Assembly (NCBI GenBank): GCA_025454405.1
Contig: JALOON010000042.1
Coordinates: 1 to 25,333, forward strand
Length of the DNA stretch: 25,333 nucleotides
Direction: 5' to 3'
DNA from: Oscillatoriaceae cyanobacterium Prado104
Lineage (GTDB): Bacteria; Cyanobacteriota; Cyanobacteriia; Cyanobacteriales; Microcoleaceae
Shown: positions 3,422 to 18,069 of the stretch, one piece after another
Position numbering within the stretch: position 1 is the first letter of the stretch
Layout: each line of letters begins with the position of its first letter
Program-made: the position numbers and the translations under genes
The notes under the pieces: model-generated
Told to the model about the DNA's origin: nothing
Databases searched by the model: none
What the model saw: only the letters and a program-made list of their open reading frames with translations

Positions 3422-3471
3422 TAGTTGACAGTTGACAGTTGACAGTTGACAGTTGACAGTTGATAGTTGAC
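3422..3471. repeat. (AGTTGAC)7 heptamer tandem repeat immediately after the hisZ stop
   Basis: tagttgacagttgacagttgacagttgacagttgacagttgatagttgac, read directly. Confidence 0.9.
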
Positions 3472-5078: not shown

Positions 5079-5184
5079 GTTGGTAGTGGGGACTTCAGTC
5101 CTCAAAGGACTAAAGTCCTCACTACCAACCAGGTTGGTAGTGGGGACTTCAGTCCTCAAAAGACTAAAGTTTTCACTACGAACC
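5079..5184. repeat. Tandem pair of ~52-bp palindromic elements (gttggtagtgGggacttcagtcctcaaaggactaaagtcctcactaccaacc); MITE/REP-like
   Basis: Copy 1 at 5079-5130, copy 2 at 5131-5184. Each folds into a compound hairpin (ggtagtg..ggact / agtcctcactacc) with an inner agtcc/ggact stem. Related fragments occur at 13780-13806 and 25018-25057. Confidence 0.8.
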
Positions 5185-5231: not shown

Positions 5232-6272
5232 CTAAGTATCTGATATCAGAGGAAAGTTATCAGTTGCCAAAACTAGTCCGTTTTTGAGAGTTGCGATCGC
5301 CCCTGCTTGAGGAATACTTTTAATTAGTGCCAGCCCTTTTTCTGCACCGAGAACAAACGCAGCAGTAGACAATCCATCCGCTTCCATACCGCTAGATGCT
5401 AATACTGTAACGCTGGAAAATTCTTGTGGCGATTTACCCGTATGCGGATCGAAAATATGATGGTTAATGCAGTCTTCGCTGAATTTCGTTGCGTAATCAC
5501 CGGAAGTGGCAATAAATTGATTTTGTGGCTGTACAAATCCTAGATTTGCATTCATTTGGCGGGGGTTTTGAATGCCGATTTTCCAAGGAATTCCGGCTGC
5601 TTTTTGTCCCCAACTGCCGATTTCACCTGTATCTAGCAAAGCATTCTCAATGCCGTAGTTTTTAAGTACCGCAAGAACTCGATCGCTCGCAAAACCTTGT
5701 GCGATTCCGTTTAAAGTAATTGCCATTCCCGACTGAATAAATTGGATGCGTTTTGCGGATACTTCCAGATTGTTCCAGTTTACCAATTGCCTCGCTCGAT
5801 CGATTACTTCCCCTTCAGGCAACTTTCCTAATTTCTCAGCTTGCGCGCAAGCTTCCCACAAAGGCTGCACCGTGATATCAAAAGCACCGCCACTCAATTC
5901 TGAGAGATTTTGAGCGCCATGCAATACTTTCACTAAATCGGGATGGGGTAACTCCAGCCAGCCCTGACGATTCAGTTGGCTGACTTGACTTTCGGGGCGG
6001 TAAATGCTCATCAACTGTTCGATGCGATGCACTTCTCGCAGGGCTGCCGCGATCGCAGATTTAGCAAGATTAACATCCTCATGTACTGCGGTAATCGATA
6101 CATTCGTACCCATAGCGTAGGAAGTATCTCGTACCAATTTTAATCCGGTTTTTTCCCATGGTATAAAACTTGTTTGCTTTCCACCTAAGCGATTGATTAG
6201 CCCGCGCCCGCACAGCATCACGATCGCTCCTGCAGAGGCCATCAAAACTTTCCGACGCGCGATCGAATTCAT
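5232..6272 (-). CDS. apbE: FAD:protein FMN transferase ApbE, probably Tat-exported
   Basis: ApbE family motifs YAMGTNVSIT, GGAFDITV and SGDYATKF. N-terminus MNSIARRKVLMASAGAIV looks like a twin-arginine signal. It lies directly downstream of an FMN_bind-domain gene on the same strand. Confidence 0.8.
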   Translation of the reverse strand: MNSIARRKVLMASAGAIVMLCGRGLINRLGGKQTSFIPWEKTGLKLVRDTSYAMGTNVSITAVHEDVNLAKSAIAAALREVHRIEQLMSIYRPESQVSQLNRQGWLELPHPDLVKVLHGAQNLSELSGGAFDITVQPLWEACAQAEKLGKLPEGEVIDRARQLVNWNNLEVSAKRIQFIQSGMAITLNGIAQGFASDRVLAVLKNYGIENALLDTGEIGSWGQKAAGIPWKIGIQNPRQMNANLGFVQPQNQFIATSGDYATKFSEDCINHHIFDPHTGKSPQEFSSVTVLASSGMEADGLSTAAFVLGAEKGLALIKSIPQAGAIATLKNGLVLATDNFPLISDT

Positions 6273-6424: not shown

Positions 6425-7318
6425 TCATTTTTTCACAGCTTTTTGCAGTGCATCTTCAATTGCTAGTAACAATGATTTGCTGGTAGTAGTTGCTCCCGTC
6501 ACCCCGTCCAAATCCACTTTTTGCGCCCTAATAACTTTTCTCGTCACCCCTTCCGCCAGCAGTGGATAAAGAGCCGATCGATTGCTGATAATATCAATCC
6601 GAGTAATTTGATGTTGGGCAACAGTTACATCTACAGCATAAGTAAAGCCGCCTCCTGTTTCTTCCCCCCGATAGGTGCCATCGGCAACAGTTGCTAAATT
6701 TACTGGTGCAACGGGTTGTCGGCGGTAGGATTGCAAAACGACATTTTGCTGGTACAGATATAGGGCAACTGCGATCGCCACTACCGCGCCAATTACTAAT
6801 GTTGCCTTGCGATTAATTTGCAAGGGCTTTTTGCGCGTTCCCCACGGTTTAAACACAGAAATTACTACAACTGAGATTAAGATTGCCAACTCTAACCAAG
6901 TCCATCGAATCGTATTTGAAACAGCTTGCAGGTATGCCGGATCGCTTAGCGCATCAAGTCGCAAAGCATCGGAGATTGCAGCCATGCTGTTAATGGCTGG
7001 AGTTGAAATCGCCGTAATAAAAAAGCCAAAAAAGAAGATGATTGCCCACTTCAGCGCTATCCAATGAAATTTGAATGCACCCCAATTAGTGAAGAGTGAA
7101 AAGCACAATCCAGTATACAAAAAGCCAAACATGGCATTGGTAACAGCATAGTCGTGGATGTAGAAAATCGTGCGATCGATCGCGGCTAATTCGTCGCCAT
7201 TTTGAATGCCTGCTTTTGCGTGTACCAGCAACAGCATTGCCACCAATCCACCCACCCAAATTGTTGCTAACAAAATATGAATGCTCAGCAGGATGCGTCT
7301 AGTCGTCGGATTGAACAT
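6425..7318 (-). CDS. Polytopic membrane protein with C-terminal extracytoplasmic FMN-binding (FMN_bind) domain carrying a flavinylation motif
   Basis: Roughly 5 hydrophobic TM segments in residues 1-200. The C-terminal ~80 aa has the FMN_bind signature DLDGVTGATTTS (ApbE target motif D-x-x-[ST]-G-A-T), encoded at about 6479..6514. An apbE gene is adjacent. Confidence 0.7.
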   Translation of the reverse strand: MFNPTTRRILLSIHILLATIWVGGLVAMLLLVHAKAGIQNGDELAAIDRTIFYIHDYAVTNAMFGFLYTGLCFSLFTNWGAFKFHWIALKWAIIFFFGFFITAISTPAINSMAAISDALRLDALSDPAYLQAVSNTIRWTWLELAILISVVVISVFKPWGTRKKPLQINRKATLVIGAVVAIAVALYLYQQNVVLQSYRRQPVAPVNLATVADGTYRGEETGGGFTYAVDVTVAQHQITRIDIISNRSALYPLLAEGVTRKVIRAQKVDLDGVTGATTTSKSLLLAIEDALQKAVKK

Positions 7319-7349
7319 CTTGTTCGTACTCCTGACAAACTGATAGGAT

Positions 7350-7856
7350 ATGACAATATTGTGTCATTATGACAGGATACTGTCAAGTATGGTCGAGCAA
7401 CAAATTTATTCTCCGGCTGGCGAGGCGTTTACCGAATTGGTGTTGGAGATATTTCGGGTGAATGGGTGTCTGTTGGCTGAGGGCGATCGCATGACAGCCG
7501 ATTTAAACTTAACCAGCGCTCGCTGGCAGGTGATGGGCGCGATCGGGCGCGAAGCGATACCAGTGGCGCAAATTGCGCGCAAAATGGGGCTGAGGCGGCA
7601 AAGCGTGCAACGTCTGGTGGATATTCTGGCGGGTGAAGGGCTAGTTGAGTTTAAGCCCAATCCCGAGCACCAAAGGGCGAAGCTAGTAAAACTGACAGAA
7701 ATTGGGTGGCAAAAGCTCGATCGAATCAATCAAATAGAGGTAGGTTGGGCGAACAATATTAGCCGTGAAATGGATGTTGAAAAATTAAAGAATGCTGTTG
7801 AAATATTGCAGCAAATTCGCAAACATTTGACAGCTTGTGGGAGTTGTGAGTTGTGA
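7350..7856 (+). CDS. MarR family transcriptional regulator; true start probably ATG 7389
   Basis: Winged-helix MarR core ARWQVMGAI...VAQIARKMGLRRQSVQRLVDILAGEGLVEFKPNPEHQRAKLVKLTEIGWQKL. The first 13 codons of the track ORF overlap operator-like palindromes at 7351-7385, so the in-frame ATG at 7389 (MVEQQ...) is more plausible. Confidence 0.75.
   Translation: MTILCHYDRILSSMVEQQIYSPAGEAFTELVLEIFRVNGCLLAEGDRMTADLNLTSARWQVMGAIGREAIPVAQIARKMGLRRQSVQRLVDILAGEGLVEFKPNPEHQRAKLVKLTEIGWQKLDRINQIEVGWANNISREMDVEKLKNAVEILQQIRKHLTACGSCEL
7351..7385. promoter_or_regulatory. Array of alternating TGACA/TGTCA half-sites; candidate MarR operator in the divergent promoter region
   Basis: Read directly: TGACAatattgTGTCA (7351-7366), TGTCAttaTGACA (7362-7374) and TGACAGgataCTGTCA (7370-7385). 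They sit between the divergent FMN_bind/apbE operon start (7318) and the marR start. Confidence 0.5.
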
Positions 7857-7899
7857 GTTGAGGGTTGAGAGTTTTGAGTTGAGAGTTGAGAATAATTCT

Positions 7900-7964
7900 G
7901 AGTTTTGAGTTTTGAATTTTGAATTTTCTTTAACTCAAAACTCAAAACTCAACATTCAAAACTC
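7900..7964. terminator. Long imperfect hairpin from inverted heptamer arrays, (GAGTTTT)n loop (AAAACTC)n; bidirectional terminator candidate between convergent genes
   Basis: 5' arm gagttttgagttttgaattttgaatttt, loop cttta, 3' arm actcaaaactcaaaactcaacattcaaaactc. It lies between the marR stop (7856) and the stop of the minus-strand ATP-grasp gene (7973). U-rich on both strands. Confidence 0.5.
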
Positions 7965-7972
7965 CTTACCCA

Positions 7973-9490
7973 TTACGTTTCTCGATCGAGCACTTTGACA
8001 ATCTTGTTATAAATTTCTTCTGCTTCTTGCTGCGAATTGCCAATACTTGTCAGTCCCAATTTGCCAAACTCCGACAAACAGCCCATTAAATGAAAAATAG
8101 TCCCCGTTTCCGTACCCGTATCAAAATGCAGTTGATTGTCAGCAATAATATCCATTAAATCGTTCGGCAACAATCCCCGATAGCGCTCTTTTTTTAAATT
8201 GTCGGAAGCTACATAATATTTAGGACGCCCCTGCAGGCTGTAAAACAATCCTGTAGAGCGATCGTACCGACCGTTTGTTAGCAGTTTTAATGCCATAAAA
8301 GGATGAGTTGTACCTCCCTTCCGCAAGTTAATTTCTATTGCTTGAATATCCCACTTGCCATCAGCTTGCTGCACCGCCACAAAATCAACTCCAAACCTCT
8401 CTAAAGCGCCTTTTTCTGATAATTTTTGCCCTACTTTCCAACCCAATTCTTGCAGCGCTATCCGATAGGATTCATCCGCAGGAAACCGACAGCCCAGAAA
8501 AATTTGACCGTCGGGACCTCCTAAAATCTGGTCGTGAGTGGAAAGAATTTCGACTTCGCCACTGGGGAGAACTCGACCTTGAACGCTGGGCGATCGCTTG
8601 TTTTCTCCTTCGATAAATGCTTCGGCGATCGCCCCTAATTCCGGTATCCTGCTGCTGAAATTTTCCCATTTTTCTCCGGCTGCTTGAAAGCGCAAATTTG
8701 GTAAATAATCGGCGATTGCTTTTACCTTGTCTCGATCGGATGTACCCGCAATAGTTTTCAGTTCTAAAATAGCATTACCTTCGCCTGAGAAACCTTCATT
8801 TAGCTTAATTACAATCCTCTGCAAATCCGGCTGTCTTTGCCACAATTGAGCTGCCGCTAATGCTAAATCTCCCACATTCCAAACTAACTCCGAACCGTCG
8901 GGATAAGGCACGCCAGATTCTGCAAAAATTTGCCTGCTACCGCTTTTTGTTCCCCAATACAACAAATCTGGATCGCTGGCCCATAAAGGGATGCCCAATT
9001 TAACAGATAACTCGCGTTCTAAAGGCGTCGAGTTGTAACAAATCATATAAGATTTTGTCGGTCGCACTGCTTGGCGAATGCGTTCCATCAAGCGGGGGCG
9101 TTCTAAGATTTTTTGAGTGAGAGATTTCGCAGAAGCATCGTAAGTGGAAAATAATAATAGTCGATCGCGCGCGTGCGAAAATGGAATTCCCGGCAGCAGT
9201 TGCAAGTAATAATCAATTATCATGGGATGCAGCGGCTCGGAAGTCATGTAAATTAAGCGGGTGCGGGGATTTCGCAGGCGAATTAACGAGAATAAATGCC
9301 GTTCCTCGTAGTGGTGCGCGCCGGGGATTTTCTGCATTTCTTGCTGGTCTAAAGTGAGGGAGGGAATGACCATAATGTCGCAATCTCCGCTATCAAATTC
9401 TTCGATCGCCTGCCAGCGTTCTCGAAGTTCGCTTTGCAGGTTGCGAAATTGCAGAACGGTTTCTAAAGGTGAATTCGTTAACTCTAGCAT
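7973..9490 (-). CDS. ATP-grasp fold ligase with N-terminal pre-ATP-grasp-like domain (possibly PGM1-like peptide/carboxylate-amine ligase)
   Basis: ATP-grasp signatures are present: IVIKLNEGFSGEGN (Lys plus flexible Gly loop), AIAEAFIEG and FGVDFVAVQQADGKWDIQAIEINLRKGGTTHP (E-x-N Mg site). The family-level name is an inference from memory. Confidence 0.6.
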   Translation of the reverse strand: MLELTNSPLETVLQFRNLQSELRERWQAIEEFDSGDCDIMVIPSLTLDQQEMQKIPGAHHYEERHLFSLIRLRNPRTRLIYMTSEPLHPMIIDYYLQLLPGIPFSHARDRLLLFSTYDASAKSLTQKILERPRLMERIRQAVRPTKSYMICYNSTPLERELSVKLGIPLWASDPDLLYWGTKSGSRQIFAESGVPYPDGSELVWNVGDLALAAAQLWQRQPDLQRIVIKLNEGFSGEGNAILELKTIAGTSDRDKVKAIADYLPNLRFQAAGEKWENFSSRIPELGAIAEAFIEGENKRSPSVQGRVLPSGEVEILSTHDQILGGPDGQIFLGCRFPADESYRIALQELGWKVGQKLSEKGALERFGVDFVAVQQADGKWDIQAIEINLRKGGTTHPFMALKLLTNGRYDRSTGLFYSLQGRPKYYVASDNLKKERYRGLLPNDLMDIIADNQLHFDTGTETGTIFHLMGCLSEFGKLGLTSIGNSQQEAEEIYNKIVKVLDRET

Positions 9491-9505
9491 TGCATTTTAC
9501 CTACT

Positions 9506-9577
9506 GGGAAAGAGAGGGAGAGTGGGGGAGGGGGAGAGGGGGAGAGGGGGAGAGAGGAAGAGGGGGAGAGGGGGAGA
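9506..9577. repeat. (GGGGAGA)n polypurine heptamer tandem repeat (~10 units) between the GT39 and ATP-grasp genes
   Basis: gggaaagagagggagagtgggggagggggagagggggagagggggagagaggaagagggggagagggggagaa, read directly. It is followed by (ATCCGTG)3 at 9634-9660 and (CAACTGT)5 at 9678-9710. Confidence 0.9.
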
Positions 9578-9677
9578 ATTTTTCTTTCTTCCTTCTGACG
9601 AAGAACGAATGACTCAAGAAATACGGATAATTCATCCGTGTATCCGTGTTATCCGTGTCGTGCCTTCCTTCTTCCTT

Positions 9678-9710
9678 CAACTGTCAACTGTCAACTGTCA
9701 ACTGTCAACT
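9678..9710. repeat. (GTCAACT)5 heptamer repeat, reverse complement of the AGTTGAC family, directly after the GT39 stop
   Basis: caactgtcaactgtcaactgtcaactgtcaact, read directly. Confidence 0.9.
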
Positions 9711-9713
9711 ATT

Positions 9714-11330
9714 TTAAGCATCCCACCGCACTCGAAAAAGTCTGGCATATTCCAATATAGGCTCTAACCGGCGTTGGTATTCCTGCAAGGCCGATCGCAA
9801 CTTTTCGGAAGGCCGGAACGCTAGAGGATTCGTATATTTTCTTACCGTATCGATATCTGGCGACTGACTCAGCAGCAGCAATCGCACATCTTTATCCAGC
9901 AGATAACTTAAAGATAGCAAATCTCCCATGTTTGTAAAATCGTTGCCCCGATCGCTAATTACAATTGTATCTTTAATCGATCGATTAGCTATCGCTTCTT
10001 TGTTAATATATCCGGCAACTTGTGCGTTAAAATAGCTCAAGTCTTTGCTCCACCAAGTATTAGAAAAAGCACTGGCAGTACATGATGCTATGCTGGCTGC
10101 AAACACCGCTGATACAATGATTTTTCCGAACGACTGCCGGCTTTTGATGGTGCTGGCAAGCCAGCCTGCAACTGCTAGCTGCACTCCCGGAAAACAAGAA
10201 ACCAAATAGCGACTGACGGCCGATCTCTTGCCTCCCATAATTATATCCGGTAAAGCTAATATTAGAAAAGGTACAAAAATCGATGTTACAACAAACAGCC
10301 AAGTTGCAGTGTTAGTGTGGCGGCACATTTGGTAAAGTGCGACGGCAATTAATAGCAAAAACGGCACTCTCAGCAGGTAAGTCCAGATATTATCAAATCC
10401 AAAATCGAGGTCAAAAAATATGGCTGTAAAACTGAGAGTCCACAATTTGCTAAGGAAAGGCAAACCGGGGGCGACTCGCGTCCAATCTGTCGTAGCTTCG
10501 GCGCGTTGGAGGTTGGTTGCCAGCACGTAAATCCAAGGCACGTACAAAATTAAACCCGCTGTTACTGCTAAGAAAAACTGGGAATTGATGATGTGTCCTT
10601 GTACTTCCTTTCTTTTGACAAACAACCAATATAAAATTACAAAAGCCCCCTGTCCGATTAATGTTAAGCTGAAGAATGGATGAGTGTAGAAACCAAGGGC
10701 GATCGCCAGCGCATAAAACACCCAATTATACCATTTTTGCAACCGCACTGCTCTCAACAACAGCCAACTGCTGCCGATAACTGTTACTGTTAGCAAACTG
10801 TACTGTCTTGCTGTCTGAGCGAACAAGATATCGAAGGGAGATAAAGCTAACAGGGCTGTTGCTAATAAAGAAGCTGAACTTGAGGCAAAAAGTTCTTTCG
10901 CTAAAGCGTACATTAAAGGTAAAGACAGCAAGCTCAGTAGCGCTGGCAAAGTGCGGGATGCTGTTAGAGAACTGCCAAATTGCTGCATCCAAAATCGAGC
11001 CATGAGAAAGTATAAAGGTGGATGCTGCGGGTCTTCCAACGCGAGGGAATTAATTGTATCTGCTGCGGTACTTCCCGGTTTTATCTGTTGGTATTTCTGC
11101 AATTGGGGAGCAGGAAAGATACGGTTTTGGAAAAGTTCGTCATCGATTTCTTGTCGGGTGAAGCCAGCCGCCCGGAGCGAGGTGTAAGCTTCATCATGCC
11201 AGTAAAGTTTGCGATCGAGCTGGAAAAAGCGAAATCCGATGCCTAATAAAATAACAGCAATTAATAGACTTATAAACCATCGTTGGTTTGGGCGGTCTAT
11301 CGAATTATTTCGCTCAGTTGTAGGTGCCAT
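9714..11330 (-). CDS. Glycosyltransferase family 39 (PMT/ArnT-like, GT-C) polytopic membrane glycosyltransferase
   Basis: About 12 predicted TM segments. The first-loop motif YWHDEAYTSLRAAG (DE catalytic pair) is typical of GT39/ArnT-like enzymes. 538 aa. Confidence 0.7.
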   Translation of the reverse strand: MAPTTERNNSIDRPNQRWFISLLIAVILLGIGFRFFQLDRKLYWHDEAYTSLRAAGFTRQEIDDELFQNRIFPAPQLQKYQQIKPGSTAADTINSLALEDPQHPPLYFLMARFWMQQFGSSLTASRTLPALLSLLSLPLMYALAKELFASSSASLLATALLALSPFDILFAQTARQYSLLTVTVIGSSWLLLRAVRLQKWYNWVFYALAIALGFYTHPFFSLTLIGQGAFVILYWLFVKRKEVQGHIINSQFFLAVTAGLILYVPWIYVLATNLQRAEATTDWTRVAPGLPFLSKLWTLSFTAIFFDLDFGFDNIWTYLLRVPFLLLIAVALYQMCRHTNTATWLFVVTSIFVPFLILALPDIIMGGKRSAVSRYLVSCFPGVQLAVAGWLASTIKSRQSFGKIIVSAVFAASIASCTASAFSNTWWSKDLSYFNAQVAGYINKEAIANRSIKDTIVISDRGNDFTNMGDLLSLSYLLDKDVRLLLLSQSPDIDTVRKYTNPLAFRPSEKLRSALQEYQRRLEPILEYARLFRVRWDA

Positions 11331-11348: not shown

Positions 11349-11542
11349 AAAAAAACCGGGGTTTTGGTAGAATTGGCGGGTTGCAGCGAAATATTATCTC
11401 GAAAAACTCGGTTTCTGGCTACCCGAAGCGCGACAGCGCGATCGATTAGAAGCTTGCAGGATGCTCGATCGATTGAGAAACCGGGTTTCTGTGCGAAAAA
11501 TACGGTTTTGTTGCAAAGTCTTTGCCAGAAACCCGGTTTCTG
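11349..11542. repeat. Four copies of a 15-17 bp palindrome (CA)GAAACC-N-GGTTTC(TG) in the GT39/recA divergent intergenic region
   Basis: aaaaaaccggggtttt (11349-11365), gaaaaactcggtttctgg (11401-11418), gagaaaccgggtttctg (11475-11491), cagaaacccggtttctg (11526-11542). Spacings are 52/73/51 bp. Confidence 0.6.
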
Positions 11543-11897: not shown

Positions 11898-13028
11898 ATG
11901 GCAAAAAAAGACACATCACCAAAAACTGGGACTGAAGACGTTGCAAAGCAAAAAGCCCTCAGTTCGGTACTGCAACAAATCGAGCGCAGCTTTGGTAAAG
12001 GCGCAATCGTCCGTTTGGGAGACGCCACTCGGATGAAGGTAGAAACGATATCCACAGGCGCGCTGACGCTGGATATCGCTTTGGGAGGGGGCTTGCCCAA
12101 AGGCCGAGTGATCGAAATTTACGGTCCGGAAAGTTCCGGTAAAACCACTCTAGCCTTACACGCGATCGCGGAAGTACAAAAATCCGGCGGGATCGCCGCC
12201 TTCGTGGATGCCGAACACGCCCTCGATCCCACCTACGCCTCGGTTTTGGGCGTTGATATTGAAAATCTGTTAGTTTCGCAGCCCGACACCGGGGAAATGG
12301 CTCTGGAAATTGTCGATCAACTCGTGCGTTCCGTTGCTGTAGATATTGTAGTAGTTGACTCCGTAGCGGCCCTGGTTCCCCGCGCTGAAATTGAAGGCGA
12401 CATGGGCGACTCTCACATGGGCTTGCAAGCGCGCTTGATGAGCCAAGCTTTGCGAAAAATCACCGGTAACATCGGCAAATCCGGCTGTACGGTAATTTTC
12501 CTCAACCAATTGCGGCAAAAAATCGGCGTAACCTACGGCAACCCCGAAACAACAACCGGCGGTAACGCTCTCAAATTTTATGCCAGCGTGCGGCTCGATA
12601 TCCGCCGCATTCAAACCTTGAAAAAAGGCTCGGACGAGTACGGCAACCGCACTAAAGTTAAAGTTGCAAAAAATAAAGTTGCTCCGCCTTTCCGCATTGC
12701 TGAATTTGACATTGTATTTGGCAAAGGTATTTCGACTTTGGGCTGTCTGACTGACTTGGCCGAAGAAATGGGAGTAATTACTAAAAAAGGTTCTTGGTAC
12801 AGTTACAACGGCGATAACATCGCTCAAGGTCGAGACAATGTAATTAAGAACATGGAGGAAAAACCGGAATTTAGAAATCAAATCGAGCAGCTAGTAAAAG
12901 AAAAACTGGCTACTGGGGCTGTGGTTTCGGCTAATTCTGTGGCTCCTGTCGATGACGTTGATGATGATGAGGACGATGTTGATGATGTTGATGCTGAGGT
13001 TCTAGAAGATTTGGACGACGAAATCTAA
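11898..13028 (+). CDS. recA: Recombinase RecA
   Basis: Unambiguous: [34 protein letters not shown] (Walker A), [20 protein letters not shown]-like L2 region, and an acidic [10 protein letters not shown]-terminal tail. Confidence 0.95.
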
Positions 13029-17973: not shown

Positions 17974-17978
17974 GAAAA

Positions 17979-18055
17979 GTTTTGAGTTTTGAGTTTTGAG
18001 TTTTGAATTAAAAAATGTCTTTAACTCAAAACTCAAAATTTAAAACTCAAAACTC
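17979..18055. terminator. Second inverted heptamer-array hairpin, (GTTTTGA)n loop (TCAAAAC)n; bidirectional terminator candidate
   Basis: gttttgagttttgagttttgagttttgaat / loop taaaaaatgtctttaa / ctcaaaactcaaaatttaaaactcaaaactc. It lies between the convergent stops at 17973 (+) and 18070 (-). Confidence 0.5.
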
Positions 18056-18069
18056 CCGATTTCCCAATT

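Follow-up and report, generated by a model that had tools for sequence, protein, structure and literature searches.

A membrane glycosyltransferase and a PGM1/BesA-type ligase of Oscillatoriaceae cyanobacterium Prado104: adjacent genes with very likely independent functions

Introduction

Do two adjacent genes of a cyanobacterium, one for a membrane glycosyltransferase (GT) and one for an ATP-grasp ligase, belong to one pathway? The question is raised by a stretch of 25,333 nucleotides from Oscillatoriaceae cyanobacterium Prado104 (contig JALOON010000042.1, positions 1 to 25,333), hereafter called the window, in which a preliminary description had seen a possible glycoconjugate or peptide modification pair. 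Our analysis indicates that the GT and the ligase are very likely two functionally independent genes, which are neighbours only through gene order at the level of one clade. The proposed pair is not borne out: the adjacency is absent outside the Microcoleus/Tychonema clade, the unrelated gene recA serves as a control for synteny within it, and the ligase survives the loss of the GT in Tychonema bourrellyi.

Both open reading frames (ORFs) were confirmed at their described positions on the minus strand, with the GT upstream and the ligase downstream. The ORF coordinates also bear out the same-strand arrangement of the two genes and the 223-bp spacer between them.

9714 to 11330, minus strand: GT-C membrane glycosyltransferase (Pfam PMT_2) of 538 amino acids (aa), identified by ORF, Pfam profile, structural model and fold search
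7973 to 9490, minus strand: PGM1/BesA-type ATP-grasp carboxylate-amine (peptide) ligase of 505 aa, identified by Pfam profile and BesA homology
9491 to 9713, no strand: intergenic spacer of exactly 223 bp, analyzed with Tandem Repeats Finder (TRF) and a repeat census of all spacers

The NCBI names of the Prado104 products are "glycosyltransferase family 39 protein" for the GT and "peptide ligase PGM1-related protein" for the ligase. The label "family 39" is an NCBI product name only, and the enzyme may belong to CAZy GT39 or to GT83. A 137-aa ORF that crosses the spacer on the plus strand (9354–9767) translates the G-rich repeat as GEGERGRGGERKRGRGGE; it was rejected as a by-product of the repeat and is not a gene.

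Results

Gene order around the ligase in cyanobacteria

The synteny sample comprised 78 genome and 80 metagenome loci around ligase orthologues, together with 11 loci (L079–L089) obtained by exact-protein look-ups. The presence of the GT was scored at each locus by tblastn with the window GT, and loci with a ligase at least 80% identical were assigned to the clade, which consists of Microcoleus, Tychonema and mis-named metagenome-assembled genomes (MAGs). The GT was found beside the ligase and on the same strand in 67/67 loci of this clade. It was found in 0/72 loci outside the clade, where the ligase is 63–78% identical and the available upstream sequence measured 1.7 kb or more. Conservation of the pair across cyanobacteria, which had been suggested as a check, is thus limited to the clade, where recA proved equally syntenic: this unrelated gene, used as a control, is kept next to the GT in 52 of 54 clade loci. 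The adjacency of GT and ligase is therefore no more than background synteny within the clade. Within the clade, RecA has a median identity of 90%, the ligase one of 86% and the GT one of 79%.

Nor are the two genes retained and lost together. T. bourrellyi FEM_GT703 has, between recA and an intact ligase of 506 aa, no more of the GT than a remnant (aa 457–535), and in many lineages the ligase occurs without an adjacent GT. The GT is also split between reading frames in two MAGs of the clade (L003 5995–7598 and L066 6058–7594); these may be pseudogenes or assembly errors. The spacing of the two genes is likewise neither short nor conserved. In 55 intact pairs the spacers measure 56–1975 bp (median 359) and are unalignable. 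That of Microcoleus vaginatus FACHB-2002 (L052) was enlarged to 1975 bp by an insertion (6447–7853) encoding a 468-aa RNA-guided endonuclease TnpB (NF040570, 5e-73), which now stands between GT and ligase.

Outside the clade, the 84 ligase loci fall into 33 neighbourhood groups. No Pfam family recurs more than twice among the 55 dereplicated immediate neighbours (maximum 2/55), and a same-strand ORF lies within 120 bp of the ligase in only 4/84 loci upstream and 5/84 downstream. No two of the annotated ligase contexts (PCC 7120, Trichocoleus, Leptolyngbyaceae, Phormidium and Dapis) are alike, and the neighbours that carry a name are housekeeping genes. Because it has no recurrent neighbour and few close same-strand ORFs, the ligase is a genomic loner.

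The window departs from the gene order of its relatives at the ligase 3' end: in none of the related genome loci (0/78) are the ApbE, FMN_bind and MarR genes downstream of the ligase.

The glycosyltransferase

The sole profile matched by the GT is Pfam PMT_2 (53.9 bits against a cut-off of 26.1, 3.2e-14), and no NCBIfam model matches it. Searches of the PDB sequences gave nothing significant, whether with the single sequence or with a profile of its 30-member family; the only GT-C enzyme retrieved by the family profile was Pmt4, as a weak match (E=0.96). The AlphaFold (AF2) model built on the 30-member family alignment reached a predicted local distance difference test score (pLDDT) of 92.7 and a predicted template modelling score (pTM) of 0.92. 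When it was submitted to Foldseek against the PDB, 32 of the 32 matches at E<=0.001 were GT-C enzymes, namely STT3/PglB/AglB, ArnT, Pmt4, Pmt1-Pmt2, ALG9/12, DPY19 and AftA, with EmbA/B/C just below that threshold. The best size-matched structure was ArnT (5f15, template modelling scores 0.54/0.53), and both STT3 and ArnT outranked the Pmt chains. Together, the Pfam profile, the AF2 model and the Foldseek search agree with the earlier assignment of the protein as a GT-C-fold, PMT_2 (ArnT/PMT-like) membrane glycosyltransferase.

A WHDE motif occupies residues 44–47 (D46/E47), directly after the first helix (14–35). In the 30-member alignment E47 is invariant and D46 is at least 90% conserved. 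The C-terminal alpha/beta domain covers approximately residues 450–538. The enzyme thus has the GT-C fold of ArnT (GT83), PMT (GT39) and STT3/PglB (GT66), is of nearly equal length to ArnT 5f15, and resembles these enzymes in its PMT_2 domain and in the acidic D-E motif that follows the first transmembrane helix. It differs from them in sequence, being only 11–17% identical to any solved GT-C enzyme.

ArnT, PMT and STT3/PglB use polyprenyl-phosphate-linked donors. By analogy with them, the GT would take a sugar from a polyprenyl-phosphate carrier and transfer it to an acceptor, which could be a lipid, a glycan or a protein, at the periplasmic (outer) face of the cytoplasmic membrane. The acidic D46/E47 motif would be used in this transfer, in a first periplasmic loop whose sidedness is assigned by the same analogy.

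The family to which the GT belongs is large, with 1192 cluster representatives at E<1e-30. The best 120 homologues of the window protein all come from the Microcoleus/Tychonema clade, outside which the best relatives reach only 52–53% identity. Few close members bear an organism name; these are all cyanobacterial and include a relative from Chroococcopsis/Chlorogloea. The GT is a lineage-restricted paralogue within a large family of GT-C membrane glycosyltransferases.

The ligase

The downstream product had been described as an ATP-grasp enzyme with a pre-ATP-grasp-like N-terminal domain. An ATP-grasp ligase with an alpha/beta N-terminal domain was indeed recovered, and the branch proved to be a different one. 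In a Pfam scan at E<=0.01, neither ATP-grasp_4 nor any pre-ATP-grasp family was matched; the protein instead matched ATP-grasp_IQCH (75.4 bits, cut-off 27) and PGM1_C (48.3 bits, cut-off 22.5; 7.2e-13), which places it in the PGM1/BesA branch.

BesA (PDB 8yi6) is the only solved relative of the ligase that was found by single-sequence and profile searches of the PDB (E=2.3e-46 and 5.9e-49, respectively), and the alignment runs from residue 37 to 497 of the ligase against 7 to 453 of BesA. Neither the single sequence nor the profile retrieved a chain named PGM1 from the PDB sequences, for which reason the relationship between the ligase and PGM1 is considered distant. The score of the ligase against the BesA equivalog model NF042917 is 154.1 bits, far under the cut-off of 750. 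Judged by this score, the ligase is not a BesA equivalog.

Comparison with BesA, the L-propargylglycine--L-glutamate ligase of the Streptomyces beta-ethynylserine pathway (PDB 8yi6, NF042917), nevertheless reveals homology over the full length and common motifs, among them WG(T/S)KSG, HDQ(I/V)L, RFPADE and (I/V)EINLRK. The two proteins differ in a Gly-rich segment, NEGFSGEGNA, which is invariant in the cyanobacterial ligases and lies opposite a gap when these are aligned with BesA. They also differ in context, the cyanobacterial gene standing alone without bes-type neighbours. Likewise, the ligase has the PGM1_C domain of PGM1, the pheganomycin peptide ligase of Streptomyces cirratus, and differs from that system in that neither a precursor-peptide gene nor a pheganomycin-type cluster lies near it.

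ATP-grasp enzymes bind nucleotide and Mg through a Lys of the central domain and through an E-x-N motif that lies in the C-terminal one. In the ligase, K229, E386 and N388 are invariant among 16 orthologues and identical in the BesA alignment. RFPADE and HDQIL are also invariant among the orthologues and match BesA. On sequence grounds, these invariant residues are consistent with an active enzyme. The acyl-phosphate chemistry of ATP-grasp enzymes, by which an amide bond is made between amino acids, is presumably common to BesA and the ligase. No signal peptide or membrane segment was found in the ligase sequence. The protein would thus be a soluble cytoplasmic enzyme that most likely uses ATP to turn a carboxylate group, on an amino acid or a peptide, into an acyl-phosphate. 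As suggested by its superfamily and by BesA and PGM1, it would then couple this acyl-phosphate with a second amino acid or peptide through an amine of the latter.

What is known of the two characterized relatives concerns amino acids and peptides. PGM1, itself an ATP-grasp enzyme, couples the carboxylate of a non-proteinogenic amino acid with a peptide at its N-terminal amine (PMC8939145). The pathway of the Bes cluster, to which BesA belongs, glutamylates propargylglycine (PMC8341276). The preliminary description had itself named two findings that would refute the pairing: a lack of synteny in relatives, which is what the loci outside the clade show, and a grouping of the ligase with a well-characterized family of known unrelated substrate. 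The ligase groups with PGM1/BesA, whose characterized members act on amino acids or peptides, and no glycan role is reported for them (PMC8939145, PMC8341276). Our literature searches found no published function for this ligase clade, and no paper on cyanobacterial PGM1-like ligases, on the structure of BesA or on all2348–2350, the presumed locus tags in PCC 7120.

Orthologues that are 72–77% identical are present in Nostocales (PCC 7120, Calothrix, Anabaena), Leptolyngbyaceae, Trichocoleus, Dapis and Chroococcidiopsis. In Anabaena PCC 7120 the orthologue occupies 2830757–2832373 of BA000019.2, minus strand. The ligase was also found in Cylindrospermopsis and in Trichormus azollae. The latter is a genome-eroded symbiont of Azolla, and the genome of Cylindrospermopsis is also reduced. 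The very high conservation of the ligase, its stand-alone position and its presence in these two organisms point to a housekeeping-type role that is common to filamentous cyanobacteria and independent of the GT. The differing compartments, distributions and evolutionary rates of the GT and the ligase fit such independent roles.

An AF2 model of the ligase, computed from 13 close orthologues, was too poor for a fold search (pLDDT 55, pTM 0.38) and was left unused.

The intergenic spacer

The spacer had been described as consisting entirely of simple repeats, with a G-rich array of 7-bp units. TRF detected four tandem arrays in it.

9511 to 9577, no strand: AGAGGGGG x8.4, a G-rich array of period 8
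9634 to 9658, no strand: ATCCGTGT x3 array
9664 to 9678, no strand: CTTCCTT x2.1 array
9677 to 9710, no strand: TCAACTG x4.9 array

These arrays cover 139/223 bp, that is 62% of the spacer and not the whole of it, and the period of the G-rich array is 8, so that neither part of the description stands. Similar arrays are widespread in the window, where they are present in 11/17 spacers and account for 18.1% of intergenic bases compared with 1.4% of coding bases. The unit CAACTGT occurs at three loci of the window: the GT-ligase spacer, 708–736 and 3423–3463. The spacer could not be aligned even to that of the closest relative, whose ligase is 95% identical and whose spacer is built of other units, GATTTTA and AATTACC.

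We take these sequences to be the short tandemly repeated repetitive (STRR) heptanucleotide repeats known from filamentous cyanobacteria. Like STRR sequences, they form tandem arrays of 7–8 bp units (about 7 bp) that are limited to intergenic DNA, occupy many loci and have units recurring at several sites. They depart from this picture in that the repeat units at the GT-ligase spacer differ even among the closest relatives. The only function implied here for such repeats is the formation of hairpins from inverted arrays between convergent genes. The possibility that the spacer encodes a structured RNA or a riboswitch was considered and rejected: no Rfam family matches, and the predicted RNA fold is less stable than that of shuffled controls (z=+1.77). 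The spacer is ordinary intergenic DNA with genome-wide repeats that turns over rapidly, and it is not a conserved element.

Transcription signals and the case for a joint transcript

Three candidate sites bear on how the two genes are transcribed.

11393 to 11421, minus strand: promoter-like TAGCCA-17-GATAAT (9/12), candidate GT promoter from a consensus scan, its -10 hexamer ending approximately 60 nt upstream of the GT start
9623 to 9639, minus strand: weak terminator-like hairpin in the spacer from a consensus scan, with a 7-bp stem, 3 GC pairs and a poor T tract
7836 to 7984, minus strand: strong hairpin over the ligase stop codon, extending 3' of it (minimum free energy -43.9 kcal/mol, z=-6.05, 0/200 shuffles as stable)

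Although the spacer is otherwise hypervariable, the clade conserves a block immediately before the ligase start. At least 38 of the 77 clade loci carry in it a sigma-70-like sequence, CTGACA-17-AATAAT (10/12), at -55 to -27 relative to the ATG (for example L012 7946–7974). This conserved, promoter-like block argues for a promoter of the ligase's own in the clade.

The hairpin at 7836–7984 is made of the inverted repeats I1–I7 and I9 and is probably, as predicted from its fold, a bidirectional terminator common to the ligase and the convergent MarR gene (7350–7856, plus strand). Two convergent-gene spacers of the window, 7857–7972 and 17974–18069, have the same construction, an (AGTTTTG)n array with the reverse-complementary (CAAAACT)n array after it, and the hairpin of the second is even further from random expectation (z=-9.30, 0/200 shuffles as stable). 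The heptamer repeats thus appear to build bidirectional terminators between convergent genes. Sub-threshold Rfam miRNA matches at 7836–7984 were dismissed as artefacts of the repeat hairpin.

The best-surviving alternative to independence is that GT and ligase form a lineage-specific module, co-transcribed in Microcoleus and Tychonema, in which an amino-acid or peptide moiety, made or attached by the ligase in the cytoplasm, would end up on a glycoconjugate built by the GT. Several observations weigh for such a link and against the independence of the two genes, which we infer from comparative genomics. The adjacency and strand order of GT and ligase are perfectly kept within the clade. In the window and in its two closest relatives (L001 and L002), the promoter-like block is replaced by repeat arrays, and the consensus scan found no sigma-70-like promoter in the window's 223-bp spacer. 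The sole strong terminator-like structure of the locus follows the ligase, and the number of terminator-like sites in the region is not above shuffle expectation, so that the hairpin at 9623–9639 is weak evidence for termination between the genes. Read-through from the candidate GT promoter into the ligase would therefore be possible in this genome. Finally, a few other lineages have carbohydrate-active genes in the vicinity of the ligase (GT4 in L073, L074 and L068, GlgA in L073, GH57 in L084). A general carbohydrate link drawn from these genes was nevertheless rejected, no family being present in more than 2/55 dereplicated immediate neighbours.

Against a module stand the control gene recA, which is an equally conserved neighbour, the loss of the GT with retention of the ligase in T. 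bourrellyi, the TnpB insertion that is tolerated between the two genes, the promoter-like element before the ligase in much of the clade, and the strong constraint on the ligase in many lineages that have no adjacent GT. In addition, as far as sequence allows, the catalytic site of the GT would be periplasmic by analogy, whereas the ligase needs ATP and has neither signal peptide nor membrane segment. A lineage-specific module is accordingly unlikely, and the small chance that we keep for it is owed mainly to the possible read-through in this genome. Slightly less probable still is a more specific version of it, in which, in the clade and above all in the sub-lineage with the overwritten promoter block, the ligase would have been captured into the GT transcript and the two enzymes would jointly make an envelope glycoconjugate decorated with amino acids or peptides. 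The literature searches brought up no ATP-grasp/GT-C pathway of this kind.

Other roles considered for the ligase

The ligase could alternatively be a tailoring enzyme of natural-product biosynthesis, for ribosomally made peptides with post-translational modifications (RiPPs) or amino-acid antibiotics, which acts like PGM1 or BesA on a precursor peptide or non-proteinogenic amino acid of a local cluster. Its PGM1_C domain and full-length BesA homology would suit such a role. So would the activities of the two relatives, PGM1 ligating a non-proteinogenic amino acid to ribosomal peptides (PMC8939145) and BesA belonging to the Bes cluster, in which propargylglycine is glutamylated (PMC8341276). 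In the 33 neighbourhood types, however, no biosynthetic cluster and no recurrent small ORF adjoins the ligase. Moreover, its score remains at 154 bits against the 750 required of a BesA equivalog, and an identity of 72–77% across orders, together with its presence in Cylindrospermopsis and T. azollae, is atypical for a gene of specialized metabolism. We therefore regard this role as improbable, much as the more specific version of the module.

The idea that a DUF711 protein is the true partner of the ligase is the least probable of all: a DUF711 (UPF0210) gene does follow on the same strand in some lineages, 12–48 bp downstream or with an 11-bp overlap (L085 7632–8795, L086 7616–8764 and L088 6603–7751), with 2OG-Fe_Oxy_2 and HpcH_HpaI genes nearby in L085 and L088, but it does so in only 3/72 non-clade and 0/70 clade loci, it is absent from the window, and no functional paper on DUF711 was found in the literature.

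Other features of the window

Downstream of the ligase, the window contains an ApbE flavin transferase gene (5232–6272, minus strand), which lies downstream of a gene for a DUF2269 membrane/FMN_bind fusion protein (6425–7318, minus strand). The divergent MarR regulator gene (7350–7856, plus strand) starts 31 bp from the DUF2269/FMN_bind gene. As a functional unit, in which an FMN-binding protein would be flavinylated, ApbE and the DUF2269/FMN_bind protein are more plausible than the GT/ligase pair. The DUF4058-ApbE spacer holds at 5079–5184 a 54-bp unit in two copies (92% match) with an internal inverted repeat, GTTGGTAGTGGGGACTT...AAGTCCTCACTACCAAC.

On the other side of the pair, the recA-GT spacer contains the palindrome GAAACCSGGTTTC at 11477–11489 and again at 11528–11540, that is twice in 64 bp against 0.05 expected, and a third, degenerate copy is found at 11404–11419. 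RecA (11898–13028) has an acidic, D/V-rich tail of low complexity, encoded by a period-3/15 repeat at 12947–12997. The length and sequence of this tail vary in relatives, for example as (VDD)n in L052.

Discussion

As a question about a gene pair, the finding matters little. The GT and the ligase are coincidental neighbours from families that are already named in public databases, with ordinary repeat DNA between them. The ligase clade is worth keeping in view. It is a stand-alone gene that is 72–77% identical across cyanobacterial orders, and its substrate, which is a question separate from the GT, could reveal a new conserved amide-bond-forming step of cyanobacterial metabolism.

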